Source: a virus
Virus record (IMG/VR): IMGVR_UViG_3300045988_073391
Location: 1 to 54,717 of that record
Direction: 5' to 3' (one strand)
Length of the DNA: 54,717 nucleotides
Part shown: positions 12,173 through 54,717 of the stretch, in pieces
How the letters are laid out: the number at the start of each line of letters is the position of its first letter
How positions within the stretch are numbered: position 1 is the stretch's first letter
Program-made: the position numbers and the translations under genes
The notes under the pieces: model-generated
What the model saw: only the letters and a program-made list of their open reading frames with translations
The model's database searches: none
What the model was told of the DNA's origin: nothing

Positions 12173-15100
12173 ATGGAACTTTCATTTGAAATATTAGCAA
12201 ATTACGACCAGCTTGTCAAAATGCAGGGCAAGCTGGAGCAGTTCAAAAATGAGTACGACAGTGTTTGCAAGAAGCTGGCTACAGAAAATGTAGCTCCGTT
12301 ATTGATGCAGTCTATACAGAAAGATATAGACAACGTCAGCAATGGGATTAGTTCGTTGTCTGCCAAAATCATAGACGCTACAAAATCTATAAATGCCTCA
12401 TCATCGTCAGATTTACAATCGCTTAGTGGAAATGCGTCTGATGCGATTAGAGCAATAGGCTTGGCGGCAGACGAGCAAAAGACAAAGTTGAGCGATTTTT
12501 GGGGGTCTGTTGATGTGGTAAGGAATCAGATAGAAGGACTGAACGACAGTGCGTCAAGAATGTCTGGGGCTATTAACTCCATCAGTAATTTTTCAAGCAA
12601 GATGGAGGGCATAGGGCAACAAATAAGTTCGACAACTGACCCGCAGAAACTTGCATCTTACAATAATGAACTTAACAAATACTCCGAAGGCATCGCAGAA
12701 TGCGGCAGCAGATTGTCGGATTGGAATATAGTCGAAATAAACCATGCTAATATATCGGAGGAGGTAGCCCAAAAGCAGGCACAATTATCTTCAGTGATTG
12801 CAGACCAAACTGCTTATGTTGAAAATCTGAAACAGCAGGTTGCCATGCTCAATCAGCAATGGCTGGCAGCAAGTGGAACGGAGAAATTGAAGTTGTGGGA
12901 CGAAAAGACAGGGCGTGAAGATGTCTTGACAAAAGAAATCGCCAAACTTGACATGATGAAAGTCAAGGCAAACGAACTTTCTATTGCATTCAGTGCTGCT
13001 GATAGCACTGTAAGTAATGTTTCACAGAAGATGGGCGATGCCATTTCCACAATAGGGAACACTAAAATGGGAGATGGCATCAGACAAGGTTTTGAAGAGA
13101 TACATTCAAAGTGTGTTGTCGCGAGAGATTCCTTGAAGCAATATAATGAGGAGTTCGCTAATATTTCAAATCAGAGCGCAAGGATACTGCAACTGCGTGA
13201 TGCCATATCAAGTCTTGATGCTGAGGCCCAGTCTGGTGCGGTGGCCAAATTGGAGGCAGAGATGCGCTCATGCTCGCAATCAATAGACCAATCGTATGCG
13301 TCATTGGCAAAGATGCAGATAAACACGAAAGCGTTTGACAATGCAAGTGCAGCTGCTTCAAAGACCATATCAGACCTTGGGGAGAGCATTAAGACTCAAA
13401 CAGATGTTGTGGAGAGCCATCGTGCGGAGGTGCAGAGATTGCAACAAGCATATAGCGAAGCAACAGATAGCAACAAGGCATCTATACAATCGCAGTTGGA
13501 AACAGCGCAGCAGTCTCTCAAAGGCGAAGAAACTGCACTCACCACTATGCAGAACACACTGCATAGCGTCCGTGCTGATTATGAGCAAATGATGCAAGTC
13601 CGCAAAGCGGTAAACGATGGAATTGTGGCATCAGACCAAAAAGCTGCACAATCTCAGCAGGAGGTGCGGAAACAGACACAGCTATCATCAGAAGAAGCAA
13701 AGAAACAAAAAAAGGCAGTCCAAGACCTTGCCGGGACATGGAAGCAATTCCTTGGAACGATTGGCGTCGCTGCTGGTCTAAAGGCATTCATAACGCAGAT
13801 GATAGAAGTTAATGCGCGCATGGAGCAGATGAAGACATCTTTATATGGCATCATGCAAAGCAAATCGGCTGCCGACCAGTTATTTTCAAGCATAAAGGAC
13901 GTTTCTTCTCACTCGGCAATAGGGCTTGGCAGCCTTACTGGGGTGGCGCAGCAATTCGTGGCGTTTGGAGAAAGCGCATCGCGCATACCTAAGCTTTTGG
14001 AAGCTATGAATGAAGTTTCCATGGGCAGCGAGCAGAAATTCAACAGACTCGCGAGTTCATTGCAGATGATGGCCGCAATGGGTCAAGTGAATACACGCAC
14101 AATTCGCTCCATGATAACGGCAGGGTTCAATCCTCTCATATCCATATCAAGGAAAACGGGAGAAAGTATGTCAGACCTTATGAAAAAGGTCAAGAAAGGC
14201 ACTATCCCTGTAAGTGAAATCACAAACTCATTTATCTCAGCGACAGAAAAGGGCGGAATGTTCTATAAGATGAATGACAAGATGAGCGGTACATTGTCAT
14301 ATCAATTCGCTGTGATGAAGAAAAACGTGGCTGGCTTTTTCCTGGAGTTAGGCAAGGCCAACGATGGGACAATTCACAATGTCACGAATTTGATAGTCAC
14401 GTTGACAAAGCATCTAAAGGATTTTGCGGAGGCCGCGAAGATTGTCGTGACTTTTGCTGGCATCAAGACAGGCGCATATTTGGCAGGACAAGCCATAACT
14501 GCCATGTCCACAGCAATGAAAGTTGCAACGGGAGCCACAATCGGACTTAATACCGCAATGAAAGCAAGCGGTTGGGGTACTATAATATCTATTGCAGCAG
14601 CCGTAGGTGTCGCTATGTATGACTTTTATACAAGCACAAATGATGCTAACAGTGCGTTGTCTAATTACAATAAGACAGTTATTGATGCTACTGGCGATGC
14701 GGAAAGACTTTTTACAACCCTTGAAAACACAGATAAGACCACAAAGGTGCATCAAGACACGCTGAAGGAACTTGTTGATAAATATGAGGAATATGGCATA
14801 CATATAGACACGAGCAAGGGGCTATTGAACGATGAGGCAAATATAACACAACAGCTCATTGAGAAGAAGGGCATACTAATAGGGCTTATTCGGGAAGAGG
14901 CGTCTGAAAGAGCAAAGGCAGAACAATACAAGAAATTCCAAGATGAAAGAGATGAAACATATAAATCAGCGCAAGAAGACATTACAAGTAAGCTAAAATA
15001 CAAAGTCGCCACAATAGGAAAGAATGCTGGAAAGCAAATTTCTGAGGGTATGGCCCAAGGTCTTTCTATATCTATTCTTGAAGAAGTTAAGAGTGCTGTG

Positions 15101-18100
15101 CCTAAAATAAAAAATGCGTCAACAAAAGAAGAAAGAAAAAGAATAAAAGAAGAATATGCAGGTCTGTTCAATAAAATGGGTGTTAGAACTGGCGCATATG
15201 ATTCAGCTGAATTTAGTTTAGGTAATCAAAGTTGGAAATATACGCAGCAGAACATTGAGCGTCTAAAGGTCCTATATGAAGTATCGAAAAAAACAGGCAT
15301 CGCGGCGAAAGACTTAGGAAGTAATTTCGTTAATTCATTGAGAGACACGGAAGATAGTTTGATTTCCACAGAAACCAAAGAGCAGGATTTCAATAAGGCT
15401 GTTGGCAATACGAGTGAAGACCTTGACTTCAACTCCCTCAAGCTCCGCTACAACAAAATGTCTGTAGAGCAATTAGGTTCAACGATACGAGACTTCTTGC
15501 AAAATTACCAAGAAAATGACATAAACTTTCATATCAATGTTGATGATGCGCAAGTGCCTAAGTGGATGAAAAACTTGGGACTTTCATCAGACAGTTATAA
15601 GAGTAATGCCGCTTATTATGCTGCACTGTTGAAAGAAATGCAAGGAGCAAGAAAAAAGACAGGGAAGGTGCAGTATCGGAGGGTTGGTAAAGAATGGATG
15701 TCAGAAGAAAAAGTTGCCACGAGAATGGCTCAATATCAAAAGTCGGCAGAAAACAAGAAGGCGGAAGAGGATAAAGCGGCAGCTGAAAAAGAAGAGAAAG
15801 AGAAAGAGGAAGCCAAGGCGGAGAGAAAGAGGCAAGCCGCGCAGAGGAAAAGAGAGGCCGCACAACGAAAAATAGAAGAAAGAAATAGAAGAATTAAGGA
15901 AGCGACAGATAATTATAACTCATCAATAAAAGATGCTGTATCAGATTTGACAGCAGGCAACGAGCAGCAGAATAACGACCTGGCAGATGATGGCGTGGAG
16001 AAGTCAATGCGTGACGCAGAATTAAAGTACGACAAGGCCGTGAAAGACGCGGACAGCAAAATTGAGAATGTGGCCAAGAGCCTGCACGCATTGAACAAGG
16101 CTAAAGGAAGTGTTGCGAAAAGCGTTGAACAACTGAAGAAAGAGATATTAGCATCTGGTGAGAGTAGCAGCGAATATGGTGCTTTAATAAAGGCATATAA
16201 CGGTGCATTGGCTTTAGCAGGCAAGACATTGCAGAAGTCACAAAAAGAGATAGTAGACGGGCTTAGAGAAACATACGATAAGGACAATAAAGACCGCAGC
16301 GAAAAGGTAAAGAAGCTGCGTGCTGATATTGCCGCATTGGAGAAGCTTGCATCTAAGGCGACATCACAAGCAGAGAAAGAAGAGCTTAATAAGTTGCACG
16401 ACAACGCCCAAGCCCAACTTGACTGGGTGTCCCAATCAAAAGACGCATGGAATGACTATTACGAGAAGTACGGAACATTCTTGGAGAAACGCAAGGCGTT
16501 GGAGGAGAAGTTCTTGTATGAAACGACAGGTCTTGACCAAGACTCAGCGCAATACAAATTAAAGGTTAAAGATTTTGATGCGGCTAATAAGGCCCTTGAA
16601 TTTGAGGAGGTAAAGAAGCAGCTGAATTGGGAGGACGTCTTTGGCGACATTAGCAGCCTGAGCAAATCTGCCTTGGCAGAGCTACAAAGTCAGCTTGAAA
16701 CACTAATCAAGAACGATAAAAATCTCTCAATAGAAAGCATTAAGGCCATCAACGAAGCAATAAATAAAGTCCGCGATGAACAGACAAAGAAAGGCTCACT
16801 TATAGGCGGATTATTTACTTCGGTACGCAATCTAAAAGAAAAATCACAAGCGGCAAAGACTGCACAAGCACAAGTCCAACGTGTTGGCGGTGGAAGTCTT
16901 TGGACGAGATACCAAAATGCTTCGTCAGCAGAAGAAAAGGCAGAAATACGCGCGGAGAAAGTATACGACCCTGTAACTGGCGAGCTGAAAACATTTGGTG
17001 ATATGCTTGATAAAGCTGCAAAATCAACGAAAGACTTATCAGATGCGCAGAAGACAGCGCAATCCTCATTTAAGTCAGTCGGCAGCGGCTTTACTGCAAT
17101 GGCGAATATGGGCAAGGACGTATCTAATATGCTCGAGAAGTTCGGTGTGACAATGCCCGAAGGTTTAGGAACCATGTTCGATGGGATTGGAGAGATAGGC
17201 TCTGCGTTAGATGGGTTCGACTTGACGAAAATTGGGTCTTTCCTTGATATCGGGAATTACGTACACGCTATCACTGGCGTATTCAGTGGAATCGCAGACG
17301 TATTTACGGGAATGTTTAAGATGATATTCGGTAAAAGCGACTCACTTAAAGCCTATGAGAATGAAAGGGAACATTACGAGAAGCTGTCGGGTATATGGAG
17401 TGACCTTATAGAAAAAAAGAAACAATACATAGAAATGAGCTTCGGAGATGGTGCAGAGAAAGCCATCAAAGAAGTAGAAGCATTATACAAGGCCGAAGAA
17501 AAGTCGCTACAAACACTTGCGACAAAGTATCTGCAAGTACGTAACATAGGTGCTCATAGCTACGGTTACCGAATAGACCGAGACCTTGGAACAAATGGCT
17601 TGCAAGCAATGAGCCAAGCGGCAGGCGTGCAGATTAACAGCGTGTCTGACCTAACGAACCTCAGCTACGACCAACTTGTAGCAGCCAAAGGCGCAGACAA
17701 TGGCGAATACTGGGCGAAGCTTCCAGTAGAGATGCAAGACTACTTGGACAAGTTAATTGAATGCAAGAAGGCTACGCAAGACTTCCAAGAGGACATGAAA
17801 GAGAAGTTTACAGGCATCAAGTTCGATGATATGTACTCAAACTTCATGTCAGTTCTTGAAGATATGAACAGCGGTGCAGACGATTTCGCTAATTCTGTAA
17901 AGGACAAGATGCGCAAAGCCCTCATAGACAACACTATGGGTAAAGCAGTCGAAGCGTGGACAAAGGATTATACAGAACGCTATCAGAAGCAAGTCGAGGC
18001 CGATGGAGGAACGCTGACTGAAGAGCATGCACGCCAGCTCAAGCAAGAGTTGGAAGAGGCTGCAAACAACTTTACAAATCAGCGAAACGACACGCTGAAC

Positions 18101-18418
18101 AATGTCGGGCTTGGTGGTGAAGCGAGTGACGGGTCACAGACAAAAGGCTTTGCTGCCGCGTCAGAGAGCAGCATCGAGGAGCTTAGCGGTCGCGCATTGG
18201 CACAGACAGAAGCATTGTATCAGATACGTGATATTCAAAATGTCATACAATCCAGCGTGAAGAATATTGAGTATTCCATTGGCACTGTGCGTGATATTCA
18301 AGAAAACTCATATTTGGAGTTGGTTGAAATACGAAAGAATACTGGAGTGTCAAGCAAGGCTATATCGGGGGTCATGAATGAAGTCAGTAGAATACGCAAG
18401 AAAATAGAAAACCTATGA
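12173..18418 (+). CDS. Tape measure protein
   Basis: 2,081 aa and mostly coiled coil. Has a TP901-type core (SLYGIMQSKSAADQLFSSIKD...GFNPLISISRKTGESMSDLMKKVKKGTIPV) and hydrophobic segments around aa 740-820. Confidence 0.9.
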   Translation: MELSFEILANYDQLVKMQGKLEQFKNEYDSVCKKLATENVAPLLMQSIQKDIDNVSNGISSLSAKIIDATKSINASSSSDLQSLSGNASDAIRAIGLAADEQKTKLSDFWGSVDVVRNQIEGLNDSASRMSGAINSISNFSSKMEGIGQQISSTTDPQKLASYNNELNKYSEGIAECGSRLSDWNIVEINHANISEEVAQKQAQLSSVIADQTAYVENLKQQVAMLNQQWLAASGTEKLKLWDEKTGREDVLTKEIAKLDMMKVKANELSIAFSAADSTVSNVSQKMGDAISTIGNTKMGDGIRQGFEEIHSKCVVARDSLKQYNEEFANISNQSARILQLRDAISSLDAEAQSGAVAKLEAEMRSCSQSIDQSYASLAKMQINTKAFDNASAAASKTISDLGESIKTQTDVVESHRAEVQRLQQAYSEATDSNKASIQSQLETAQQSLKGEETALTTMQNTLHSVRADYEQMMQVRKAVNDGIVASDQKAAQSQQEVRKQTQLSSEEAKKQKKAVQDLAGTWKQFLGTIGVAAGLKAFITQMIEVNARMEQMKTSLYGIMQSKSAADQLFSSIKDVSSHSAIGLGSLTGVAQQFVAFGESASRIPKLLEAMNEVSMGSEQKFNRLASSLQMMAAMGQVNTRTIRSMITAGFNPLISISRKTGESMSDLMKKVKKGTIPVSEITNSFISATEKGGMFYKMNDKMSGTLSYQFAVMKKNVAGFFLELGKANDGTIHNVTNLIVTLTKHLKDFAEAAKIVVTFAGIKTGAYLAGQAITAMSTAMKVATGATIGLNTAMKASGWGTIISIAAAVGVAMYDFYTSTNDANSALSNYNKTVIDATGDAERLFTTLENTDKTTKVHQDTLKELVDKYEEYGIHIDTSKGLLNDEANITQQLIEKKGILIGLIREEASERAKAEQYKKFQDERDETYKSAQEDITSKLKYKVATIGKNAGKQISEGMAQGLSISILEEVKSAVPKIKNASTKEERKRIKEEYAGLFNKMGVRTGAYDSAEFSLGNQSWKYTQQNIERLKVLYEVSKKTGIAAKDLGSNFVNSLRDTEDSLISTETKEQDFNKAVGNTSEDLDFNSLKLRYNKMSVEQLGSTIRDFLQNYQENDINFHINVDDAQVPKWMKNLGLSSDSYKSNAAYYAALLKEMQGARKKTGKVQYRRVGKEWMSEEKVATRMAQYQKSAENKKAEEDKAAAEKEEKEKEEAKAERKRQAAQRKREAAQRKIEERNRRIKEATDNYNSSIKDAVSDLTAGNEQQNNDLADDGVEKSMRDAELKYDKAVKDADSKIENVAKSLHALNKAKGSVAKSVEQLKKEILASGESSSEYGALIKAYNGALALAGKTLQKSQKEIVDGLRETYDKDNKDRSEKVKKLRADIAALEKLASKATSQAEKEELNKLHDNAQAQLDWVSQSKDAWNDYYEKYGTFLEKRKALEEKFLYETTGLDQDSAQYKLKVKDFDAANKALEFEEVKKQLNWEDVFGDISSLSKSALAELQSQLETLIKNDKNLSIESIKAINEAINKVRDEQTKKGSLIGGLFTSVRNLKEKSQAAKTAQAQVQRVGGGSLWTRYQNASSAEEKAEIRAEKVYDPVTGELKTFGDMLDKAAKSTKDLSDAQKTAQSSFKSVGSGFTAMANMGKDVSNMLEKFGVTMPEGLGTMFDGIGEIGSALDGFDLTKIGSFLDIGNYVHAITGVFSGIADVFTGMFKMIFGKSDSLKAYENEREHYEKLSGIWSDLIEKKKQYIEMSFGDGAEKAIKEVEALYKAEEKSLQTLATKYLQVRNIGAHSYGYRIDRDLGTNGLQAMSQAAGVQINSVSDLTNLSYDQLVAAKGADNGEYWAKLPVEMQDYLDKLIECKKATQDFQEDMKEKFTGIKFDDMYSNFMSVLEDMNSGADDFANSVKDKMRKALIDNTMGKAVEAWTKDYTERYQKQVEADGGTLTEEHARQLKQELEEAANNFTNQRNDTLNNVGLGGEASDGSQTKGFAAASESSIEELSGRALAQTEALYQIRDIQNVIQSSVKNIEYSIGTVRDIQENSYLELVEIRKNTGVSSKAISGVMNEVSRIRKKIENL

Positions 18419-26779: not shown

Positions 26780-27295
26780 ATGGAAAATTGGAAAGAATTA
26801 GCGGCATTTGTGCTGGAGCGCGAGGGCGGCTATTGCAACAGAAAGGCTGACAAGGGAGGGCCGACTAACAAGGGTGTGACATTGGCCACTTACCGCAGTG
26901 TGTATGGGCAGAGCAAGACGATTGAGGACTTGAAGCGCATTACTGATGCGGAGTGGGAGTACATTTTTAAGAAATACTATTGGGACAAGTGCAAGGCTGA
27001 CTACATACAAGACAAGAGTGTTGCCTTTATCCTCGTGGATTGGGCCTATAACAGCGGAGTCAAGACGGCCGTGACGCACTTGCAGCGGATAGTTAAAACG
27101 GCTACTGATGGCATCATGGGCAAGCAGACCTTGCAGGCGGTAAATACGCGTAGTCCGCTGCCATTGTTCGGGGCGTTGAAGCAGGACAGGATAGCTTTTT
27201 ATAAGGCTATTGTTGCCAAGAATCCGAGCCAAAAGGTGAATTTGAATGGCTGGCTAAATCGGGTGAACCACTTTGCCTATGGAAAGTTTTTGTAA
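26780..27295 (+). CDS. Endolysin, GH108 lysozyme-like domain plus PG_binding_3
   Basis: LEREGGYCNRKADKGGPTNKGVT (EGGY...D.GG.T..G) and TDGIMGKQTLQAV. Confidence 0.85.
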   Translation: MENWKELAAFVLEREGGYCNRKADKGGPTNKGVTLATYRSVYGQSKTIEDLKRITDAEWEYIFKKYYWDKCKADYIQDKSVAFILVDWAYNSGVKTAVTHLQRIVKTATDGIMGKQTLQAVNTRSPLPLFGALKQDRIAFYKAIVAKNPSQKVNLNGWLNRVNHFAYGKFL

Positions 27296-27403: not shown

Positions 27404-27880
27404 ATGCGTAGAATTAGTGGTTTTTTAATCGTAATTATCTGTGCAGTTGTCTTGCACAGCAGTTGCGCGCGCAAGGTTGCGCAGAGCATTGAGCGCACGC
27501 ACGACACGCTGATAGTGTATAAGACCGACAGCGTGATGATGCGCGATACGATTGTGACAGTTTCCAATTTGGAAACAGTGGACAGCGTGGCCGACCGCAT
27601 GACCACCTATGTAGTTGTGGACACAGCTGGCAAGGTGCTGACGAAGTATGTGTATCGCGACCGCAGCGTGTATCACAACAAGGACGCTCTTAGTGCGAGC
27701 AGTCATGTGTCATGCCGAGCACACCGCACAAACAGCACAAGCCACAAGGCTACGGTGCGTGATGCGGTGACAAAGGTGGAGAAGCCTCCTGCAAAGTGGA
27801 GGATTCGGGCCGTTGGCGGTCTGTTTATCATAGTAATAGGCGTGTTGCTCTATTACCATATATATAGTAAGTATAAGTGA
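27404..27880 (+). CDS. Unimolecular-spanin-like protein (N-terminal lipoprotein signal, C-terminal TM)
   Basis: Internal ATG at 27404. N-terminus MRRISGFLIVIICAVVLHSSC resembles a lipobox. C-terminal TM is AVGGLFIIVIGVLLYYHIY. Last gene of the lysis cassette. Confidence 0.45.
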   Translation: MRRISGFLIVIICAVVLHSSCARKVAQSIERTHDTLIVYKTDSVMMRDTIVTVSNLETVDSVADRMTTYVVVDTAGKVLTKYVYRDRSVYHNKDALSASSHVSCRAHRTNSTSHKATVRDAVTKVEKPPAKWRIRAVGGLFIIVIGVLLYYHIYSKYK

Positions 27881-27897
27881 TTTTGTTGGGTTGTTGT

Positions 27898-27940
27898 GGC
27901 AAGCATGGGCGCATGGTGATGTGTCCCGTGCTTGCCTTTG
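27898..27940 (+). terminator. Terminator closing the late operon
   Basis: GGCAAGCA (27898-27905) pairs with TGCTTGCC (27929-27936), followed by TTTG. Confidence 0.6.
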
Positions 27941-27977
27941 TGCTTAATTTTCTTACGAACAAAATCGCTTATGAACA

Positions 27978-28286
27978 ATGGAACAATTACAACAGATTTT
28001 TGATTTTGCAGTTGAAGCCGTGATGCAAGCCAGCGGCCTTGACTTTGATGCGCTTGCCAACTGTCGCTCGGAGCGGTGTGTGGTTGCGCGTGTGGTGCTT
28101 GTGGACGTGCTGATGGAACTTGGTATGAGCGAGGGTGATATTGCATTCCTTAGCGGCATGAGTCAGCAGAGGGCTAATTCGCTTAAGAATAGTGCGAGGT
28201 ACAGGCTAAAGGGGCTGGCTGCACGGGTGATGAGGGAGGAGGTGAGGAAATCCGTTTCCTTGCCAATAGCGGAAAATAATCGGTGA
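27978..28286 (+). CDS. Small HTH-like protein (DnaA domain IV-like?)
   Basis: RCVVARVVLVDVLMELGMSEGDIAFLSGMSQQRANSL. The similarity is weak and judged by eye only. Confidence 0.35.
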   Translation: MEQLQQIFDFAVEAVMQASGLDFDALANCRSERCVVARVVLVDVLMELGMSEGDIAFLSGMSQQRANSLKNSARYRLKGLAARVMREEVRKSVSLPIAENNR

Positions 28287-28314
28287 AAATATTGCTATAT
28301 CGCATGGATATTTG

Positions 28315-28322
28315 TATTTTTG
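28315..28322 (+). promoter_or_regulatory. TAnnTTTG box
   Basis: TATTTTTG, 17 nt before ATG 28339. Confidence 0.45.
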
Positions 28323-28338
28323 CAGAAAATAATAGGCT

Positions 28339-29529
28339 ATGAGCGATTTATACAAAGAGTATATGAAGGGGGTGTTTGTGCCACCTGTTGAAGCAACAGA
28401 TGACATATCCTGCCTGTCAATAGAGGAGTTGTTCCTTCGTAAGCAAGAAAGGGTTGGGCTAAGCAAAACCAAAATAGCGAAGATGCTTGACATGGACGTT
28501 GCGACCCTTGATAAAATAATAAAGGGCAATTATACTGGTGCAAGCGTTCTGAATACATTGAAGGTTGCTATATTTATCGGCGTTTCGATGAACGATTTCC
28601 TTAACGCAAATGCTGATACGCTTCAGTCAAAAGATGTTAGTGAAATTTGCCATGTACGTGATACGGCAGTCCTTTGCGAATATTTCAGCATAGACACACT
28701 TAATAAGATAGGGTTCTTTACTGATAATAATTATGTGCAAAGGATAAACGATTTCTTTGGCTTCAAGCAAATCAAGGAATATGCAGATATCGTTTCAGTT
28801 CTGACGAAAGCATACAGTATGACAAGAAGGAGTTACGACCAAAAGATGCGTGACTTCTGGACGATTTCTGCTTACGCTCAATTTAAGAATATTGACAACC
28901 CTAATATGTACGACAGGGATAGGCTTATGGATATAATGCCGAAGATTCGTCCTTGTTCGCAAGACGTAGAAACAGGGCTGTATCACGTGGCTCGTGCCCT
29001 TTATTCTGTTGGTGTGACGATGATTTACCAACCATCATTACCCAAAATGCAAGTACGTGGCGCAACAATGGAGTATAATGGAAAGCCATGTATTGTTATA
29101 TCAGACTTGAACAAACGCTATCCGACCTTATGGTTTTCTCTATTCCATGAGCTATACCATGTTTTGTTTGATTATGATGACATTGTGCTCAACAAAGTGC
29201 ATTTGAGTTCTGACGAAGGTGATTTATTTCTGACAGATGAAAATGCGGCAGATAAATTTGCTCGCGACTTTATTCTGTCGCCAACAAAATTGCAATTTAT
29301 AAAGCCTTATGTTCACGCACCTCTGATGATAAAAAAGTATGCTCAGAAATGGGGCGTCCATTCCTCGCTAATTTATGCGCTTATTGCTTATGATACAAAC
29401 AACTGGGCAGAATACAGTGCTCTAATACCGAGGTCGGAAAAAGCTACGGAAAGAGTAAATACAAATCCGTTCGAGGTTGAAACGATAAGAGAAGTGGCTG
29501 AAACGTATAAACAAAAATTGAATATATGA
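28339..29529 (+). CDS. XRE-HTH fused to an ImmA/IrrE (COG2856) zinc metallopeptidase domain
   Basis: N-terminal HTH VGLSKTKIAKMLDMDVATLDKIIKGN. HExxH motif in FSLFHELYHVLFDYDD. Confidence 0.8.
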   Translation: MSDLYKEYMKGVFVPPVEATDDISCLSIEELFLRKQERVGLSKTKIAKMLDMDVATLDKIIKGNYTGASVLNTLKVAIFIGVSMNDFLNANADTLQSKDVSEICHVRDTAVLCEYFSIDTLNKIGFFTDNNYVQRINDFFGFKQIKEYADIVSVLTKAYSMTRRSYDQKMRDFWTISAYAQFKNIDNPNMYDRDRLMDIMPKIRPCSQDVETGLYHVARALYSVGVTMIYQPSLPKMQVRGATMEYNGKPCIVISDLNKRYPTLWFSLFHELYHVLFDYDDIVLNKVHLSSDEGDLFLTDENAADKFARDFILSPTKLQFIKPYVHAPLMIKKYAQKWGVHSSLIYALIAYDTNNWAEYSALIPRSEKATERVNTNPFEVETIREVAETYKQKLNI

Positions 29530-30011
29530 CAAATAAGACCAAAGTTCTATCAGAAGAAAAAAAATCAAGAGAAGTTGAGGAGCTGTTGTTTAATGCCGAC
29601 AAGGCAAAGACTGACGGTTTGTTCATTGATAAGGATAACGATAATGTTGTCCTTAAAGATGAATTACAGAAACTGATTGAGTTGCCGACTGACAATCCAA
29701 ATGAGAAATATGAATTATATTATAAAGTCATAGAGAAAACACTCCGCGAGAAGTTGCCAAAAGGTGATGAATACAAGGAAGGAAATACTATGTTACGCGA
29801 AGAGAAAAATACATTTCTTACAGGACACAGGAAAGGGCGTGACGGCATACGTGGTGCTGACAGTAGGCAAGCATTTTTACCTGCAATGCAGGAATTTATC
29901 CAAATTTTGCATGATTGGCTTAAACGCGATGGTAGTACGTTTGACCTTTACCAAACATTACTCGAAGAGAATATCAAGAGAGGATATAAAGGACCAGAAG
30001 ATGTAAAATGA
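29526..30011 (+). CDS. Hypothetical hydrophilic protein translationally coupled to the HTH-ImmA gene
   Basis: ATGA overlap at 29526-29529. 161 aa, with no motif recognised. Confidence 0.55.
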   Translation: MTNKTKVLSEEKKSREVEELLFNADKAKTDGLFIDKDNDNVVLKDELQKLIELPTDNPNEKYELYYKVIEKTLREKLPKGDEYKEGNTMLREEKNTFLTGHRKGRDGIRGADSRQAFLPAMQEFIQILHDWLKRDGSTFDLYQTLLEENIKRGYKGPEDVK

Positions 30012-30023
30012 TTATGAATGAAC

Positions 30024-30050
30024 AAAGGCCACCTGGATTGGGTGGCCTTT
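30024..30050. terminator. Bidirectional terminator between convergent genes
   Basis: AAAGGCCACC, loop tggatt, GGGTGGCCTTT. Confidence 0.75.
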
Positions 30051-30068
30051 TTCTTGTAATTGGTTTTG

Positions 30069-31163
30069 TTACCTAATAGGTAAAGCTTTTGTTCCCTTAA
30101 GATTGTAGCAACCAGTGTCATGCTTATATCTCCATATTACCACATCTTCTGACAGGGACTTTTCTTTCGCCATCTTTTTAAGATGCGGAACGATGGAAGC
30201 AAAACCTTGTGGCATTTCGCTCCTGCTGATTTCTTTCCATATATGAGGTGGTATCAAAGCATCAGCAGCGAATTTATTAGCTTCGCTCTCTAAGTCCGTA
30301 TTCTTATTGCAATCAGAAGAGATAAACCCTGAATGCTCTCCTTTCCTTAAATGTAAAGATATGTGCCCAAGTTCGTGCAATACATTAAAGACAAGGCGGC
30401 TCATATCATTGTATCTGTTCGTTGTCACGATAGATGGGTATTCGTTCTTCCAGAAAGAGAAAGCATCAACAGGAACACGTTCTATTTTTCTGACAACAGA
30501 ATATGAGATGCCCAAGTCGCTAAGGATAGACTTCATCTTTGTTTGGGTTAATGTGCCTTTATTCATCTCAGATGAGATATAACCAGCTGCTTTATCTGCA
30601 TTTCCTTCTTCATAAGGTTTTTGAGGGGCATTATTGTTAGCTGATACGTATGAGAGTAACAACCACGTGTTTAAGTTCTTTTCGTCTGTCGTTAGCTTTT
30701 CGCTTTTCTTAAAAGCACCATTAGGAATAAGAGCAGGAATCTGTATTGGTTCTACGTGAAAGGCACTCCTAAGCATATCTAATTTGTCTTGCACAAAAAT
30801 AGACGCACGAATGCTTAGTTGCGAATACAGATAAGGAAGATTTAATACGTTATGCAGGCTTGTTTCAACTGTTATTGCAGACCGTTCTTCTTCCTCTCTT
30901 TGTGCTATTGCAGCGCAATCTTTGTCATATTGCAGTTGCAGGCTTATCCAATAATCTGCTGGAATACCAAGAGCTTGTTCAAGTTTTCTTGCTATGTCAA
31001 CAGATATGGACGTGCCACCTCTAAGCAATCTGCTAAGATTAGCCTGCTGAATGTTCATGCGTGTGGCGAGTTCCTTTTTACTCATTCCACGCGCTTTTAA
31101 CTCATCCTTTACTAATTCAACTGGATGTGTTGCTTCAAACGGAGTAATGTTATTTGTCGCCAT
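30069..31163 (-). CDS. HigA-type HTH antitoxin domain fused to an ImmA/IrrE metallopeptidase domain
   Basis: N-terminus FEATHPVELVKDELKARGMSKKELATRMNIQQANLSRLLRG...ADYWISLQLQYD. HExxH motif in NVLHELGHISLH. Confidence 0.8.
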   Translation of the reverse strand: MATNNITPFEATHPVELVKDELKARGMSKKELATRMNIQQANLSRLLRGGTSISVDIARKLEQALGIPADYWISLQLQYDKDCAAIAQREEEERSAITVETSLHNVLNLPYLYSQLSIRASIFVQDKLDMLRSAFHVEPIQIPALIPNGAFKKSEKLTTDEKNLNTWLLLSYVSANNNAPQKPYEEGNADKAAGYISSEMNKGTLTQTKMKSILSDLGISYSVVRKIERVPVDAFSFWKNEYPSIVTTNRYNDMSRLVFNVLHELGHISLHLRKGEHSGFISSDCNKNTDLESEANKFAADALIPPHIWKEISRSEMPQGFASIVPHLKKMAKEKSLSEDVVIWRYKHDTGCYNLKGTKALPIR

Positions 31164-31470
31164 AATGTTCGCTTATTTCGATTAGTTCTATTGTTATACC
31201 TAACTCGTTTTCTGTAAAGATTAGTCTGTATTTGCTATTGTAACCAATTCTTACACTACTAAAACCAGATTTGTCGTATTTCATTTTCTCGTAACGTAGT
31301 GTTTGAATACTTTTCAAGGTTTCAGTGTCTTTAGCCGCTCTTAAAGCATTAAAGACCTTCTGCAAATCTTTCTTTAATTTTCCAGCACTCTTATACTTTT
31401 TATATTTCCCATGAAAGTTGGAATATAGTACAGCATCTTCTATTTCCTCATCGGTAAATAATATCTCCAT
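31150..31470 (-). CDS. higB: HigB/RelE-family toxin
   Basis: Internal ATG at 31470. FSSVRIGYNSKYRLIFTENELGITIELIEISEHYGDK is the typical C-terminal signature. Overlaps the antitoxin gene by 14 nt. Confidence 0.7.
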   Translation of the reverse strand: MEILFTDEEIEDAVLYSNFHGKYKKYKSAGKLKKDLQKVFNALRAAKDTETLKSIQTLRYEKMKYDKSGFSSVRIGYNSKYRLIFTENELGITIELIEISEHYGDK

Positions 31471-31488
31471 GTTGTATGTTTTATGGTG

Positions 31489-31496
31489 CAAAGATA
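31489..31496 (-). promoter_or_regulatory. TAnnTTTG box of the higB operon
   Basis: The reverse strand reads TATCTTTG, 18 nt before the ATG at 31470. Confidence 0.55.
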
Positions 31497-31561
31497 CAAA
31501 GAATTTATCAAATATGATAATAATTGCCGAAATAAAGCAGCGAAAGAATGTATTAAAAGCA

Positions 31562-31613
31562 ACAAGCAACTAACAAACAACTAACAAAACCCACAAGCAA
31601 CTCACAAGCAACT
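31562..31613 (+). repeat. Three direct copies of ACAAGCAACT in a divergent intergenic region
   Basis: Copies at 31562-31571, 31593-31602 and 31604-31613, with related aacaactaaca words between them. Confidence 0.85.
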
Positions 31614-31632
31614 TGTCACCACCTTTGCGCTA

Positions 31633-31650
31633 TCGGGGGATATTCCCCGA
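31633..31650 (+). promoter_or_regulatory. Leader hairpin or palindrome
   Basis: TCGGGG, loop gatatt, CCCCGA, directly after a CACCTTTG box-like word. Confidence 0.35.
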
Positions 31651-31672
31651 CCGACTTAATACATTCATAATC

Positions 31673-32509
31673 ATGGACAATGTAGAGAAAGTAATCTGTT
31701 GCGACAGAGGTAATGATGCGCTTGCTTACGCGGCAATGGCTAACAACAAGGGCAATGACCCCATGGCCTTGGCAGCTATGATGAACGGTGGCCTTGGAGG
31801 TGCAAACCAGTGGCTGAACAATCCGTTTCTGTATCTTATTTTCCTTGCCATGTTCGGTGGCAATGGCTTCGGGTTTGGCAACAACCGCAATGGTCTGCAA
31901 GATGCTGAGATACAGGGTCAAATCCAATCTTTGCGCTCGCAGATGGCTGACAACCACAACTCCGACCTGCTGATGCAGGCCATCAAGGGCAATAACGATG
32001 CCTTGACCACACTGGGTGCAAACCTTAATTGCGACTTCAACCAGTTGCAGCAAGGCGTGTGCGCTGTTCGCTCCGCTATTGACAACGTAAGCGGCAAGGT
32101 AGGCTTCTCGGCAGAGCGCGTAATCAACGCAGCGGAGAGAGGTGATGCGGCAGTTATCCAGGCAATTCAGAATTGTTGCTGCAACACGCAGAATAGCATC
32201 ACCAAGATGGGCTATGAGAACCAGCTCGCAATACAAGGACAGACCAACTCCTTGCAGCAGAGCCTCAATTTTGTAAACTCGTCTGTGGAGCGCGGATTCA
32301 GCTCTGTTGGCTATCAGATGTCGCAAGACAAGTGCGATGTAATTCGTGCAGGACAGGACAACACGCAGCGCATAATTGATGCGCTGAACAATCATTGGTA
32401 TGCTGACATTGACCGCAAGTATCAAGACGCGAGATTGGAGTTGTCGCAGCAGAGCCAGACTGCCGCACTGATTGCAGCTTTGGGCAAGACTACAACTGCA
32501 ACGACATGA
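31673..32509 (+). CDS. Orphan Gln/Asn-rich protein with one TM-like segment and a CCC cluster
   Basis: ATG at 31673 (MDNVEKVICC). Hydrophobic segment NPFLYLIFLAMFGGNGFGFG, long Q/N-rich helical region, QNCCCNTQ. The 337-aa antisense ORF looks like a shadow. Confidence 0.6.
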   Translation: MDNVEKVICCDRGNDALAYAAMANNKGNDPMALAAMMNGGLGGANQWLNNPFLYLIFLAMFGGNGFGFGNNRNGLQDAEIQGQIQSLRSQMADNHNSDLLMQAIKGNNDALTTLGANLNCDFNQLQQGVCAVRSAIDNVSGKVGFSAERVINAAERGDAAVIQAIQNCCCNTQNSITKMGYENQLAIQGQTNSLQQSLNFVNSSVERGFSSVGYQMSQDKCDVIRAGQDNTQRIIDALNNHWYADIDRKYQDARLELSQQSQTAALIAALGKTTTATT

Positions 32510-32628
32510 GGAGGTGTTTCCAAAACGGAAATAACCACTGATGACCATTCTATTGACGCCAACGAAAAGGTTGACAACAATAGCTTTTTCGCGAGGTCGC
32601 GGAAAAGGTCGAAAGAGAAGTAATAACA

Positions 32629-32659
32629 AGCACGTGGGGAGGTGATTGCCCCACGTGCT
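32629..32659 (+). terminator. Perfect 11-bp hairpin (no T-run)
   Basis: AGCACGTGGGG (32629-32639) pairs with CCCCACGTGCT (32649-32659). Confidence 0.45.
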
Positions 32660-32676
32660 ACTAACACGTTGAAATT

Positions 32677-33159
32677 ATGCTATTCAAAGATGTGAAAATA
32701 GGCTACCCGATTTACTTTCTTGACAAGGAGGGGTCAAGATATTACCAAGGCAAAGCCGTGAGTGTTGCAGTTCCGCGCTACGACAATAGCCAAGCTAAGG
32801 CTTTTGGCGCGCAGCCGACTGGTCTTGTGGTAGACATAACCATAGAGGCAGATGGTGCGACCAAGACCTACACAATTCCAGAGACTGCAACAATAACGTA
32901 CGCAGGGCATCTTGTATTGTCAACAGACAAGGAAGGAATACTAAGAGAGGTCGAAGCACTTAAGGCTGCAAGCGAGGAGGCATTGTCACAGGTTGAGCGA
33001 CACAAGCAGATGGTTACAAATTGTAGTCAACTGATGGAGGAGATAAATCCAGCATTTGCAGAAAAGCGCGCGCAAGACAAGCGGATTGAGGGCATTGAGA
33101 ACGAGGTGAAGAGCCTTGGGGCTGTCCTTCGTGATTTTATAAACGAGTTCAAAAAATGA
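32677..33159 (+). CDS. Hypothetical protein with C-terminal coiled coil
   Basis: 160-aa ORF of ordinary composition. Confidence 0.55.
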   Translation: MLFKDVKIGYPIYFLDKEGSRYYQGKAVSVAVPRYDNSQAKAFGAQPTGLVVDITIEADGATKTYTIPETATITYAGHLVLSTDKEGILREVEALKAASEEALSQVERHKQMVTNCSQLMEEINPAFAEKRAQDKRIEGIENEVKSLGAVLRDFINEFKK

Positions 33160-33336
33160 TGATTATGGGAAGATTATATATGGTATTTTGCAAGGGTGGT
33201 GGCAAGTGCAAGCACTTCGACAAGGAAAGTGCAGAGAAAGCTGTCAGCCGCATATACTACACTACTAAAGACGGCGCGGAGCATCATGGGCCGCACTGGT
33301 CCACATAGTATGCTGATTTTCAGCGACTTATGATTT

Positions 33337-33356
33337 ATGCGTGCTAAAATGCGTGC
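33337..33356. repeat. Two ATGCGTGC words 12 bp apart, downstream of int (candidate arm-type sites)
   Basis: Copies at 33337-33344 and 33349-33356. Confidence 0.3.
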
Positions 33357-33373
33357 GAAATAAGCGGTTATGG

Positions 33374-34588
33374 TTACTTGTTGAACAAGTCCATAGCCGT
33401 TTTTTTTGCTTTGTCTGCTATATCGATGTAGGGCTTCATGCTCTTGTAATCGGAGTGTCCAGTCCACTTCATCACAACGTTTGGGGCAATTCCAAGCATC
33501 AGCGCATTACAGATAAATGTACGCCTTCCGCTGTGCGTTCCGACCATCTGCCATTTTTCTTTCGTTCCCTCTATTTTTTTTCCACCTATATAATATATAT
33601 CCGTTAGCTTCTCGTTGATACCGCATTGGCGGCACGCCTCCTTGATATATACGTTCATTTTCTGATTTGAGATGACTGGTAGAGCCTTGTCTGTATCGTT
33701 GTCCGCATAACGCTGTAAGATTGTGCGAGAGTAGTTGTTAAGCTCTATTGTAATCTTGTCATTAGTCTTTTGCGTGGTTATGTGTATCGCGTCATCGTAT
33801 ATGTCTGTTTTTTTGAGCGCAGCGGCATCGGAATAGCGCAATGACGTGAAGCAGCAGAAACAGAATATATCGCGTGTGCGTGACAGGTAGGGCTGGTCGA
33901 ACTTGTGGTTATACACTTTCATCAGTTCCTCCCATGTAAGAAATACCACATTGCGGTTGGCACGCTTTAGGTGTGTTCTCTGTGCAGTAAAGGAGATGTC
34001 AGTTAATAAGCCCTTGGCCACAAGCCAGCGAAAAAACCACTTGGACATTGACAGTTTCTTTTTTGTCGTTTCATTCTGGTGGCCGAGGTCCGACTGGAAA
34101 GCTGCAAACTTGTCAAGAGTTTCTGGCTTTATTTTGTCTATACTCATCTCTGCATCGAACATTTTCCATTCTTGCAGTAGCTTCCTGTGCTTATAGACTA
34201 CACTCTTGCCCCAATGACATAATTTGCTCTGCTCGTTAATATATTCTTCGTAGAGGTCAAAGAAACCCTCCTTTTGTGCAGTTTTATTTTCACGCTTAAA
34301 CTCCTTGTCAAGCTCCGCCTTGAAGTCCTCTATTGCAGGCGACTCCTTGAATGAGTTGGCAACGGATTGTATTGTCTCCTCATACCTCTGTATCTCTGCA
34401 TTTATCTTAATTGCAGGAGTAAAGCTCTTTCCGTGAGTTGTGTTGCGCTTGCACCGCTGCATAGTCATGTCCCATTTGCTCTTGTCCACGCTAAACCCGA
34501 GCGAATAAGAGAATTTACGCTTGTTGTAAGTAATGAACACGCGGAGAGAGCCGCGCGCATCAACTGCAAAGGTGTATACGTATTTCAT
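33374..34588 (-). CDS. int: Tyrosine site-specific integrase (Bacteroidota phage/CTn type)
   Basis: 404 aa. C-terminal catalytic region THSGRRTFICNALMLGIAPNVVMKWTGHSDYKSMKPYIDI (R...HxxR...Y). Confidence 0.9.
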   Translation of the reverse strand: MKYVYTFAVDARGSLRVFITYNKRKFSYSLGFSVDKSKWDMTMQRCKRNTTHGKSFTPAIKINAEIQRYEETIQSVANSFKESPAIEDFKAELDKEFKRENKTAQKEGFFDLYEEYINEQSKLCHWGKSVVYKHRKLLQEWKMFDAEMSIDKIKPETLDKFAAFQSDLGHQNETTKKKLSMSKWFFRWLVAKGLLTDISFTAQRTHLKRANRNVVFLTWEELMKVYNHKFDQPYLSRTRDIFCFCCFTSLRYSDAAALKKTDIYDDAIHITTQKTNDKITIELNNYSRTILQRYADNDTDKALPVISNQKMNVYIKEACRQCGINEKLTDIYYIGGKKIEGTKEKWQMVGTHSGRRTFICNALMLGIAPNVVMKWTGHSDYKSMKPYIDIADKAKKTAMDLFNK

Positions 34589-34589
34589 T
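34556..34589. repeat. 34-bp direct repeat, copy 1 (covers the int start codon)
   Basis: cgcatcaactgcaaaggtgtatacgtatttcatt is identical to 35499-35532. Confidence 0.95.
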
Positions 34590-35460
34590 TGTTCTCCTCT
34601 TTGTCATTTTTCAATATTGCATTCTGTTCAAGCATTCTGAAATCTTCCTCCGTGTTAGTATCCTTCAATACTTTAAGCTGCTCTTTTGCCATCTTGTGTA
34701 AGATTTGCATTCTCGTTTCTCGTTGCAGTTCCTGCTTTAATAATTCGGAGTTCATACTTTCAATATTTGATAACACAACCAGCTGATTTATTGTGGCTGT
34801 ATCACGTAGATTAAGCCCTTTCTTTGCCAATTCCGGATTTGCGGTGCGCCAATCTTCTGCTGTACACCCAAACAATATAATATTGAGCATATCGGCCTCG
34901 GACGCATATATCAAACGTTCTTTGTATTTTGAGATGTTGTACTTCGGTATAAGCGACTTGATTGCATTTGTATGAATAGAATAGTTCGTTTTTGCAAGCA
35001 ATCGTTTAACGTTCCATTTTTCAAGCAACGGATTGCTTTCTTTCTCTCGAAGTCTCTGGTATTCTTGTACAATATATAATTGGAAAATAGGACTTATCCA
35101 CATTCCAAAATTAAACGCAATGTCCTTATGTGCGTATGTACCTCCGTATCTTCCAGCTTTAGCAAAAATGCCAATAGCGTTAGTCCTATTGCACAATTCT
35201 TTTACACTTATTTTGAAATTGTTTAATCCAGCCTTTGATTTAATTATGGCGAATTCGCCATAATTAAAATTGGGGTTGTGTAGTTGCTCCCATGCTCCTA
35301 TATATTCAAGTGTGTTTCTATTGCGAAGCCAATCAGTAACAAAGAAATCTCCTTCTTTTGACCTTATCATATCTGTAATACAAATGTAGTCATTATCACG
35401 TTCCTGTAACATCACAGAGATTTCATTCCCTTGTACTACTATTTTTCTTGTTTTAGTCAT
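34585..35460 (-). CDS. KilA-N domain protein
   Basis: KIVVQGNEISVMLQERDNDYICITDMIRSKEGDFFVTDWLRNRNTLEYIGAWEQLHNPNF. The stop overlaps the int ATG (ATGA). Confidence 0.8.
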   Translation of the reverse strand: MTKTRKIVVQGNEISVMLQERDNDYICITDMIRSKEGDFFVTDWLRNRNTLEYIGAWEQLHNPNFNYGEFAIIKSKAGLNNFKISVKELCNRTNAIGIFAKAGRYGGTYAHKDIAFNFGMWISPIFQLYIVQEYQRLREKESNPLLEKWNVKRLLAKTNYSIHTNAIKSLIPKYNISKYKERLIYASEADMLNIILFGCTAEDWRTANPELAKKGLNLRDTATINQLVVLSNIESMNSELLKQELQRETRMQILHKMAKEQLKVLKDTNTEEDFRMLEQNAILKNDKEENK

Positions 35461-35986: not shown

Positions 35987-36715
35987 TTAATCTCCCAGCC
36001 TTATAGAGTAAACTATTCTATACAGGCGGATAACCCTCGTCTTGGCTATATTCTGCGTTTCAAAGGAGCTATTTTCATTGATTATCCTGCATTCGTAGTA
36101 ATCTCCCCTATCATATATTCTTCGCAGAAGAAAGCCAAAGTCGTTGGTGTCTATTATCATGGAAGCACCTTGTATGATGTCAGAGCCGCGCTCCGTATGG
36201 GCAAGTGCGAGTACGTCGCCCTCCTTATATAGCGGCTTCATTGCGTCTTGCCTTACCATATAATAGAAATCAAAATTATTATAAGGAGGAATGGCGGTCA
36301 TGCTGTCAAGCTGCATTGTATGGCCGTCAGTATTTAGAATCTTGTATACGTCAGTGTTAGGCTGCGAGGTCAGGTATTTAGGAACTATTGGTTTAGAGTG
36401 ACTGTCTGTGCTTTTTTGCGCTTGTGTGTCCGCTATAATTGTATTGTTTCCCGTGTTGTTGTTGCCTACAATATTGTTGTTGCCAGTAATGTTATGTGAT
36501 GGCGCATGGCGAAACATCTCGCCCTCGCCTGTCAGAACCCATGACATATTTAGGTCGGGAAAGGCGGATTGAATTTGCAACTGGCGAGCCTTAGTTATAG
36601 ATAACGATTTACCAACAAACCCATTAGGGAGGTCTGCTTCTATCTCAAACTGTCTTATAGACTTAAATCCTTTCTTTTTAGCAAATAGCGAAAGTCTTTC
36701 ACCTATTGGTTTTAT
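35987..36715 (-). CDS. CI-like repressor (XRE HTH plus S24/LexA-like C-terminal domain) with a non-canonical start
   Basis: The frame is open to 36724. The HTH IGERLSLFAKKKGFKSIRQFEIEADLPNGFVGK lies upstream of the first canonical start (TTG 36578-36580). The only plausible initiator before it is ATA at 36713-36715. Confidence 0.6.
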   Translation of the reverse strand: MKPIGERLSLFAKKKGFKSIRQFEIEADLPNGFVGKSLSITKARQLQIQSAFPDLNMSWVLTGEGEMFRHAPSHNITGNNNIVGNNNTGNNTIIADTQAQKSTDSHSKPIVPKYLTSQPNTDVYKILNTDGHTMQLDSMTAIPPYNNFDFYYMVRQDAMKPLYKEGDVLALAHTERGSDIIQGASMIIDTNDFGFLLRRIYDRGDYYECRIINENSSFETQNIAKTRVIRLYRIVYSIRLGD

Positions 36716-36959: not shown

Positions 36960-37030
36960 TGGCACATTAGGTAATGGCCGCAAGGTCAGGGCTTTGCAAT
37001 AGTGCTGGGGTTCGATGCCCCGTGTGCCAC
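36960..37030 (+). ncRNA. 71-nt degenerate tRNA-like element
   Basis: Acceptor TGGCACA pairs with TGTGCCA (7 bp). T arm is TGGGG/TTCGATG/CCCCG. The D and anticodon arms are not canonical. Confidence 0.4.
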
Positions 37031-52855: not shown

Positions 52856-52927
52856 CGCAGGGTAGAGCAGTGGTAGCTCGTCAGTCTGACTTACTGAAAG
52901 TCGCAAGTTCGATTCTTGCCCCTGCAA
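52856..52927 (+). tRNA. tRNA, anticodon GAC by manual fold (Val), with an initiator-like acceptor end
   Basis: Manual fold: CGCAGGG-TA-GAGC-AGTGGTA-GCTC-G-TCAGT-CTGACTT-ACTGA-AAGTC-GCAAG-TTCGATT-CTTGC-CCCTGCA-A. All four arms are canonical. C1 lies opposite A72, T is at position 37, and CCA is not encoded. Confidence 0.75.
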
Positions 52928-52939
52928 CAACTTACAACA

Positions 52940-54662: not shown

Positions 54663-54717
54663 GTGGATAACCATTACATTATAGAAGAAAAGTCAACGCA
54701 GAAGGGATAATCATATA
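54663..54717. repeat. Terminal overlap copy 2 (identical to 1-55)
   Basis: Exact identity read directly. Confidence 0.95.

Follow-up and report, generated by a model that had tools for sequence, protein, structure and literature searches.

Two Probable Toxin–Antitoxin-like Cassettes with HTH-M78 Fusion Proteins in the Cargo Slot of a Temperate Bacteroidales Phage

Introduction

Fusions of an Xre-type helix-turn-helix (HTH) domain to a COG2856 (ImmA/IrrE, M78) peptidase domain, lying in operons with RelE or PIN toxins, were predicted by Makarova, Wolf and Koonin in 2009. These authors noted that the fusions are abundant in phages and prophages and proposed, as a prediction only, a more complex toxin–antitoxin (TA) system with LexA-like logic (PMC2701414). 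Two such HTH-M78 fusion proteins, D and B, are encoded by the virus record IMGVR_UViG_3300045988_073391 of IMG/VR, whose whole stretch of 54,717 nucleotides (nt) is hereafter called the window. Each has a translationally coupled partner, giving the gene pairs E-D (toxin-like E and fusion D) and B-C (fusion B and helical protein C). Here, we describe these pairs and conclude that they are probably two independent, self-contained, horizontally exchanged two-gene TA-like cassettes of the PD-lambda-2/RosmerTA kind, located in a cargo ("moron") hotspot between genes A and F and flanking a backbone terminator.

PD-lambda-2 from Escherichia coli is an anti-phage system made up of a HigB-like protein, a HigA-HTH/peptidase protein and a third gene product (Vassallo 2022, PMC9519451). 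PD-lambda-2B is toxic on its own, the HigB-like PD-lambda-2A neutralizes it, and the P4-antitoxin-like PD-lambda-2C is needed for defense (PMC9519451). In RosmerTA (RmrT/RmrA), which is also anti-phage, the antitoxin is a Zn-peptidase protein whose toxin partners are diverse; the order of the two genes varies, and one example is carried by a phage (Millman 2022, 10.1101/2022.05.11.491447; Ernits 2023, PMC10440598). RmrA often carries an N-terminal HTH, and the RmrT toxins described so far are either of unknown function or membrane-depolarizing (PMC10440598). In ImmA/ImmR of ICEBs1 and IrrE/DdrO of Deinococcus, an M78 peptidase cleaves an Xre-type repressor on a signal (PMC2701414). In CapP/CapH, found in cyclic oligonucleotide-based antiphage signaling system (CBASS) and other immune operons, single-stranded DNA (ssDNA) activates M78 cleavage of an HTH repressor (PMC13228613). 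Literature searches found no mechanistic study of the fused peptidase, including what it senses, in PD-lambda-2 or RosmerTA.

A previous sequence-only reading had treated five open reading frames (ORFs), A to E, as one accessory island. All five were recovered here at the coordinates it had given, together with the ATGA coupling of B and C, the 14-nt overlap of E and D, the motifs HELGHISLH and HELYHVLFD, and a hairpin at 30024-30050. Its domain calls also hold, namely a toxin of HigB type (E), a HigA-HTH joined to ImmA/IrrE (D), and another HTH-M78 fusion (B) with an unknown protein coupled to it. As shown below, its account of how these parts act together fared less well.

Results

Two Cassettes in a Variable Cargo Slot

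IMG/VR was scanned with D and with B, which yielded 27 loci from related phages, and the window proteins were mapped onto these loci. The relatives share approximately 91–98% DNA identity with the window across the common backbone. Genes A, F, and G are present in every mapped relative, and the DNA between A and F is variable. Its contents are distributed as follows:

L001-L003 (3 contigs): E-D only
L017-L021 and L023-L025 (8 contigs): B-C only
The window and one contig (L004, identical to L022): both cassettes
L005-L009 (5 contigs): Panacea-domain protein, 135-amino-acid (aa) protein, and 97-aa HigA
L026 and L027: diverged B-C, a 157-aa/HTH pair, and an ATPase-like/DUF4325 pair

Eleven relatives thus carry exactly one of the two cassettes. 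Comparison by blastn showed that the cassette borders are sharp, at 28334/28335, 30015/30016, 30051/30052, and 31561/31562, and delimited the following features:

28335-30015, plus strand: B-C cassette, 1681 bp, accessory; E-D-only phages align through 28334 and resume at 30016
30052-31561, minus strand: E-D cassette, 1510 bp, accessory, with its own promoter and operator; B-C-only phages align through 30051 and resume at 31562
30024-30050: G+C-rich hairpin terminator (terminator scan), in the backbone stretch 30016-30051 between both insertion points
27978-28286, plus strand: gene A, 102 aa, conserved backbone to the left of the cargo slot and outside both cassettes

Of the 12 bp in the hairpin stem, 6 are G-C pairs, and a T-rich stretch follows on either strand. 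It is kept in both B-C-only and E-D-only relatives (blastn). This "bidirectional terminator", previously taken as the divider of two modules, is therefore part of the backbone, and cargo has entered on either side of it. The placement of the island between the lysis genes and the integrase was correct insofar as the cassettes occupy an accessory position of the phage, but A, F, G, and the hairpin belong to the backbone. Gene A is 95–99% identical in every related phage, irrespective of the cassette carried. No match to it was found in Pfam, PHROG, or NCBIfam, and its best PDB match (E = 1.3) is not significant. The former description of A as an HTH-like accessory gene finds no significant support in these searches, and neither does a role of A as an HTH regulator of the island.

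A third type of cargo was found in L005 at 3019-4282, and also in L006-L009, in the slot equivalent to 28335-31561 of the window. It consists of a SocA/Panacea-domain protein (182 aa), the 135-aa protein, and the stand-alone HigA of 97 aa, which is 93% identical to the N-terminal residues 4–92 of D. The only DNA common to this HigA and the window is 30833-31178 (91% identity), that is, the HTH part of D. Since only the HTH segment is shared, this antitoxin domain exists in natural phages both fused to the peptidase and free of it, in the latter case next to another upstream partner. This arrangement looks like recombination at the level of domains, in which the HigA HTH stays constant while its toxin partner and its peptidase are both exchanged. 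The hotspot cargo of L026 includes two further pairs, namely the 157-aa protein with an 87-aa HTH protein (L026:3090-3823) and a 288-aa ATPase-like protein with DUF4325, which is STAS-like (L026:5724-6891).

Probable Independence of the Cassettes

Outside the phage family, E-D lies beside B-C in one locus only, a Prevotella metagenome-assembled genome (MAG; L033). There the cassettes are convergent and only 51–83% identical to those of the window, and Abi_2 and DUF4325 genes lie between them (L033:5140-6353). Among the B-C contexts outside the phage family that were reached from C or B proteins, none has E-D nearby. Relatives without both M78 genes also exist (L005-L009). Moreover, the phage repressor has its own S24 domain, and neither M78 protease is therefore needed for induction. 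The two cassettes are probably wired neither to each other nor to the lysogeny switch. The sequence-only reading had raised the possibility that one of the proteases acts on the CI-like repressor of the phage; this is unlikely, given the S24 autocleavage domain and the relatives lacking both M78 genes. Its proposal of a single island-level system made up of both fusions likewise conflicts with the relatives that carry either cassette alone, with the single co-occurrence elsewhere, and with the single D operator described below.

The E-D Cassette

The E-D cassette encodes a HigB-like protein followed by a HigA-M78 fusion:

31150-31470 from the ATG, minus strand: E, 106 aa, HigB/RelE-fold toxin-like protein; the mechanically called ORF reaches back to a TTG at 31569
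30069-31163, minus strand: D, 364 aa, with a HigA-type HTH, a helical linker, and an ImmA/IrrE M78 peptidase
30888-31154, minus strand: HTH of D (aa 4–92)
About 30204-30494, minus strand: M78 peptidase of D, with the HExxH motif (HELGHISLH) at 30363-30377

The 14-nt overlap of E and D (31150-31163) lies at the start of D. D scores 51.9 bits against HigA TIGR02607 (curated cutoff 47.7) and 24 bits against Peptidase_M78 PF06114 (cutoff 22). Residues 4–80 align to the solved HigA structure of Proteus vulgaris with an E-value of 1e-8, and the family profile reaches 1e-13. The PADLOC profile PD-Lambda-2_B matches D with an E-value of 5e-26, placing residues 7–355 on profile positions 53–382 of 402. 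At least 14 RmrA profiles match D (best 3e-19), covering the peptidase core only, and the capP and capH profiles give weak matches. In 13 homologs, H263, E264, H267, E292, and E294 are invariant. From this alignment, the M78 peptidase of D is judged to be conserved and its catalytic motif intact.

E reaches 23 bits against Pfam HigB (PF05015), under the 27-bit cutoff. It matches phrog_3066 ("toxin of TA system"), and its family comprises 178 matches, some of which carry PF05015 or bear the name "plasmid maintenance system killer". R74, R82, H102, and Y103 are conserved in the family. The AlphaFold2 model of E, with a predicted local distance difference test score (pLDDT) of 89, superimposes best on P. 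vulgaris HigB, with template modeling (TM) scores of 0.71/0.76 and a root-mean-square deviation of 2.7 Å. By its model, E is a HigB-fold toxin-like protein with conserved catalytic-type residues.

Scanning of the E-family alignment against one genome per species gave 30 loci, nearly all from Bacteroidales. A full-length D homolog (365–378 aa, 29–80% identical, with HExxH) overlaps the end of the E homolog in 23 of these loci, one of which is cut by a contig end. The partner in the remaining seven is a short HigA. That these short partners are frameshifted fusions was ruled out, as no M78 remnant lies downstream of them. A Prevotella MAG carries the genomic E-D copy most similar to that of the window (83% and 80% identity). 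No conserved third gene is present beside E-D in the 22 homologous loci, where the flanking genes are not conserved, and no PD-Lambda-2_C match was obtained; a third gene like that of PD-lambda-2 was thus rejected. In the window, D is followed downstream by the hairpin and then directly by the convergent gene C.

Promoter and Operator of E-D

Two elements were located upstream of E:

31489-31496, minus strand: Bacteroidota -7 box TATCTTTG of the E-D operon
31505-31520: palindrome TTATCA-N4-TGATAA, overlapping the -33 region of the E-D promoter, predicted binding site of the HigA domain of D

Of 24 E-D-type loci, 20 have the exact palindrome and 23 have it with at most one mismatch. Its distance to the -7 box is nearly constant: in 19 of the 20 exact loci it lies 24 nt upstream of the box, and in the other one 23 nt. 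The -33 TTTG is often embedded in it. This operator is conserved though the proteins are only about 45–50% identical, and chance cannot account for such conservation of the predicted site at a fixed spacing. In the 54.7-kb window, 31505-31520 is the sole match to the palindrome at up to one mismatch. Through this site, D would repress its own operon by means of its HigA domain. Because the operator is conserved and present in a single copy in the genome, D is predicted to bind DNA and to regulate the operon that encodes it; judged by the operator, it would have no other target in the phage.

The B-C Cassette

The second cassette has the fusion protein in the first position:

28339-29529, plus strand: B, 396 aa, with an Xre-type HTH (about aa 38–86), a helical middle part, and an ImmA/IrrE M78 peptidase
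29146-29160, plus strand: HExxH motif of B (HELYHVLFD); the third zinc ligand is E301
29526-30011, plus strand: C, 161 aa, acidic, hydrophilic, and all-helical, of an unannotated family
28315-28322, plus strand: Bacteroidota-type -7 box TATTTTTG, 17 nt upstream of the start codon of B

B and C overlap by ATGA. All Pfam matches of B are sub-threshold. The PADLOC profile PD-Lambda-2_B matches it with an E-value of 6e-18, the RmrA profiles match weakly (0.0025), and matches to phrog_2439 and phrog_87 were found. H270, E271, H274, and E301 are invariant in nine homologs (26–60% identity), and B homologs are annotated as "ImmA/IrrE family metallo-endopeptidase" in their source records. B and D are 21% identical across 324 aa and have the same domain order; from this comparison, B is a distant paralog of D.

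C and 61 members of its family gave no match in Pfam, PHROG, NCBIfam, or PADLOC. A word-indexed protein search found only 10 clusters, and a profile search found 183 representatives (clusters at 50% identity) among 1.84 billion proteins. All members are stand-alone proteins of 150–200 aa. They share a loop, EEKNxFLxRGKxKxxxGxRGxDSR(M/Q)AY, in which G-x-R-x-x-D-S-R is invariant; in C, it reads EEKNxFLTGxRKxxxGxRGADSRQ (29799-29870). The AlphaFold2 model of C is all-helical (pLDDT 69), and Foldseek gave no significant match to it in PDB (best E 0.7) or BFVD (best E 0.43).

The contexts of C and B outside the phage family were found by exact-protein look-ups. From the C side, a B homolog of 398–440 aa lies directly upstream of the C-family gene in seven of seven independent contexts. 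From the B side, a C-family gene follows downstream in two of three isolate genomes, those of Cloacibacterium normanense and Lunatibacter salilacus. B homologs are thus paired with a C-family protein in nine of ten independent look-ups. The exception is Hymenobacter arcticus (L074:5001-6899), in which the gene after that of the B-family HTH-M78 protein (423 aa) encodes a protein of 204 aa with a P63C domain in place of a C-family member, which suggests partner swapping in the B lineage. Defense genes are frequent neighbors of B-C: a DISARM-like DUF1156 methylase with a PLD/SNF2 helicase, a TIR protein, and GmrSD with an EcoRI methylase and PglZ. C is placed as a candidate effector or toxin partner of B. 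Its relatives probably make up a new family of partners or toxins, with no match in Pfam 2025, PADLOC 2023, PDB, or BFVD.

The only repeat found upstream of B is a direct one, G(C/A)(G/A)GAAAATAAT(C/A)(G/A)G, at 28269-28283 and 28322-28336. It lies in backbone DNA and occurs in L026 as well. Palindromes of the GGTAAATTTACC type are present upstream of distant B homologs in L028 (~690-720), L063, L065, L072, and L075, and absent upstream of B in the window and in L026. They may represent the operator of a distant B-C subfamily.

Phage Genome and Host

Positions 1-55 of the window are repeated exactly at 54663-54717. This terminal repeat of 55 bases identifies the record as the full genome of a phage, ~54.66 kb long and assembled as a circle, rather than as a piece of an integrated prophage. 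Along it, the structural genes are followed by lysis genes, A, the cargo slot, F and G, integrase, KilA-N protein, S24 repressor, and early genes with ERF; the conserved phage genes F and G thus separate E from the integrase. The main landmarks are:

26780-27295: GH108 endolysin, among the lysis genes
33374-34588, minus strand: integrase
34585-35460, minus strand: KilA-N domain protein, adjoining the integrase
35987-36580, minus strand: S24 (LexA/CI-type) repressor, 197 aa, with a Peptidase_S24 domain

Judging from its integrase type and TAnnTTTG promoter boxes, the phage has a Bacteroidota host; it is a temperate phage of Bacteroidales. A DNA similarity search of deposited phages with the window gave no match, and no RNA families were found in 27800-33400.

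Several further observations were made along the genome. In the structural region, an ORF of 2081 aa (12173-18418) presumably encodes a tape-measure or large tail protein. ARAGORN reported a tRNA-like gene with a four-base anticodon (cagg) at 36960-37030, directly upstream of the early operon, and a tRNA-Val (gac) at 52856-52928, near the right end. The mechanically called ORF of gene F (31613-32509) starts at a TTG at 31613; comparison of MDNVEKVICC with MSEVEKVICC of the L026 homolog suggests an ATG at ~31673 as the true start. Degenerate tandem copies of ACAAGCAAC(T) occupy 31555-31613 at the right cassette junction, upstream of gene F, and could be a promoter element of that gene or a recombination site.

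Discussion

Proposed Mode of Action

The likely interpretation remains that E-D and B-C are independent, exchangeable TA-like cassettes. Under this interpretation, E-D would be a HigBA derivative in which E, by its fold, acts as a HigB-type ribosome-dependent mRNA endonuclease. D would bind and neutralize E through its HigA domain; with the same domain on TTATCA-N4-TGATAA, which overlaps the -33 element, it would repress the operon, as the conserved site suggests. By analogy with ImmA/ImmR, IrrE/DdrO, and the ssDNA-activated CapP/CapH, the fused M78 peptidase may serve as a built-in trigger. A phage-infection or DNA-damage signal, e.g., ssDNA, would cause M78 to cut the HTH/antitoxin part in cis or in trans; the operon would then be derepressed and E freed, leading to translation arrest. 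The outcome could be abortive infection, superinfection exclusion, or addiction to the prophage. B-C may follow the same logic in antitoxin-first order, with C as the putative effector or toxin.

Several points weigh against this interpretation. The occurrence of both cassettes in L033 leaves room for some linkage between them. In PD-lambda-2, the HTH-peptidase is toxic and the HigB-like protein is the rescuer, which could mean that the roles are reversed here, and the third gene, essential there for defense, is missing here according to the profile search and the 22 loci. The PADLOC PD-Lambda-2_A profile has no match in the E family, and the RmrT profiles match neither E nor C. C displays no toxin-like fold, membrane segment, or enzymatic signature, so that its role is read from its gene position. 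Finally, the motif scan revealed no convincing operator upstream of B in the window, and the TATTTTTG box belongs to the backbone and is found in relatives lacking B-C as well.

A more specific proposal can be made for the second cassette. B-C could be an undescribed, Bacteroidota-wide two-gene immune or TA module, in which a single-chain HTH-M78 sensor-regulator controls a new helical effector family with a mechanism unlike that of known toxins; we put this forward tentatively, as somewhat improbable.

Alternative Explanations

The polarity of both cassettes may instead be reversed, with D and B inhibiting growth, e.g., by proteolysis of a host or phage target or by over-repression, and E and C restraining them. 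This is suggested by the toxicity of PD-lambda-2B alone and its rescue by the HigB-like PD-lambda-2A (PMC9519451), by the PD-Lambda-2_B profile, which spans nearly all of D and B, and by the lack of toxin-like features in C. Yet the E family retains the HigB fold and the RelE/HigB catalytic-type residues R74, R82, H102, and Y103, and in seven of 30 loci it is paired with a plain short HigA, which is the canonical combination of toxin and antitoxin. In addition, the peptidase protein of RosmerTA is undeletable, which fits an antitoxin role (PMC10440598). Reversed polarity is therefore unlikely.

Somewhat less probable still is that the fusions are single-chain stress regulators of the ImmR/ImmA or CapH/CapP type, which control cargo or phage genes and form no TA system, with E and C as regulated cargo. 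The combination of M78 and Xre follows the logic of ImmA/ImmR, IrrE/DdrO, and CapP/CapH (PMC2701414; PMC13228613), the capP/capH profiles match D weakly, one B-C pair lies within a DISARM-like operon (L065), and the predicted operator in the E-D promoter marks D as a putative transcription factor. However, this operator is found in the genome only at the promoter of D itself, the phage has a self-cleaving S24 repressor, and near-identical phages lack one or both fusions. Across 22 genomes, the neighbors of E-D are not conserved, and the sole constant "cargo" is the HigB-like toxin.

The cross-wiring envisaged by the sequence-only reading, e.g., one protease cutting the HTH of the other fusion as a two-input gate for toxin release, is very improbable: the cassettes do co-occur convergently in the window, in L004 (= L022), and in L033, but each is found alone far more often, as in the 11 single-cassette relatives, B-C lies within the flanks of loci with a full-length D homolog in L033 only, the other B-C contexts outside the phage family are without E-D, and B and D differ in sequence (only 21% identical) and in their upstream motifs.

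Significance

E-D and B-C belong to the known PD-lambda-2/RosmerTA kind, and nothing categorically new is present; within the HigB plus HigA-M78 architecture, E-D forms a Bacteroidales lineage with two genes. The TA or defense flavor proposed earlier fits. The PD-Lambda-2_B profile matches both D and B; neither PD-Lambda-2_A, against the E family, nor PD-Lambda-2_C gave a match. The wiring had also been called uncharacterized, but the architecture is already contained in PMC2701414, PMC9519451, and PMC10440598.

With the present analysis, the known range of HTH-M78 (PD-lambda-2B/RmrA-like) TA or defense modules comes to include temperate phages whose hosts are Bacteroidales of the gut and rumen. 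It supplies a conserved predicted operator for the HigB-linked subfamily, TTATCA-N4-TGATAA in a Bacteroidota -33/-7 promoter, and adds the C family, which is unannotated, to the partners of HTH-M78 proteins. The near-identical phages with neither, one, or both cassettes, together with the HigA without a peptidase, form a natural series on the contribution of the fused peptidase. If B-C should prove to be a novel module as outlined above, the phage variants would serve as an isogenic series for what this peptidase senses.

Comparison with Known Systems

The architecture of E-D is identical to that predicted by Makarova et al. in 2009, whereas the C family as a partner is outside the coverage of that prediction. 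Like PD-lambda-2, E-D has a HigA-HTH with a C-terminal ImmA/IrrE domain as its second component, and both reside on mobile elements. The two differ in that no third gene is present in E-D or in its 22 homologous loci, and in that E has a HigB fold, yet no PD-Lambda-2_A match occurs across its family. The hosts here are Bacteroidales. B-C departs further, as the fusion comes first, its partner is unrelated to HigB, and no HigB lies upstream.

The likeness to RosmerTA consists of two-gene modules, an ImmA-type Zn-peptidase protein with an HTH, swappable partners, variable gene order, and carriage by phages. However, RmrA matches are confined to the peptidase core of D and are very weak for B, E has the classical HigB fold, and neither of the coupled partners, E and C, matches an RmrT profile. 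In ImmA/ImmR, IrrE/DdrO, and CapP/CapH, the induction of an element or a downstream immune operon is governed by a protease and a repressor that are distinct proteins, whereas here the two are fused. An induction switch of the ImmA/ImmR type does not describe this phage, in which the S24 repressor is separate and the D operator is single, and of which near-identical relatives lack one or both M78 genes.

Finally, E-D resembles the canonical HigBA system of Proteus vulgaris Rts1 (PDB 4mcx, 4px8) in having the toxin gene first, overlapping genes, the HigB fold, the HigA HTH, and a palindromic operator. The canonical antitoxin is a single-domain protein of ~100 aa, whereas D has 364 aa, of which the extra ~270 aa carry an intact metallopeptidase. 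Antitoxin removal is thus probably built into D itself, without reliance on the host Lon or Clp.

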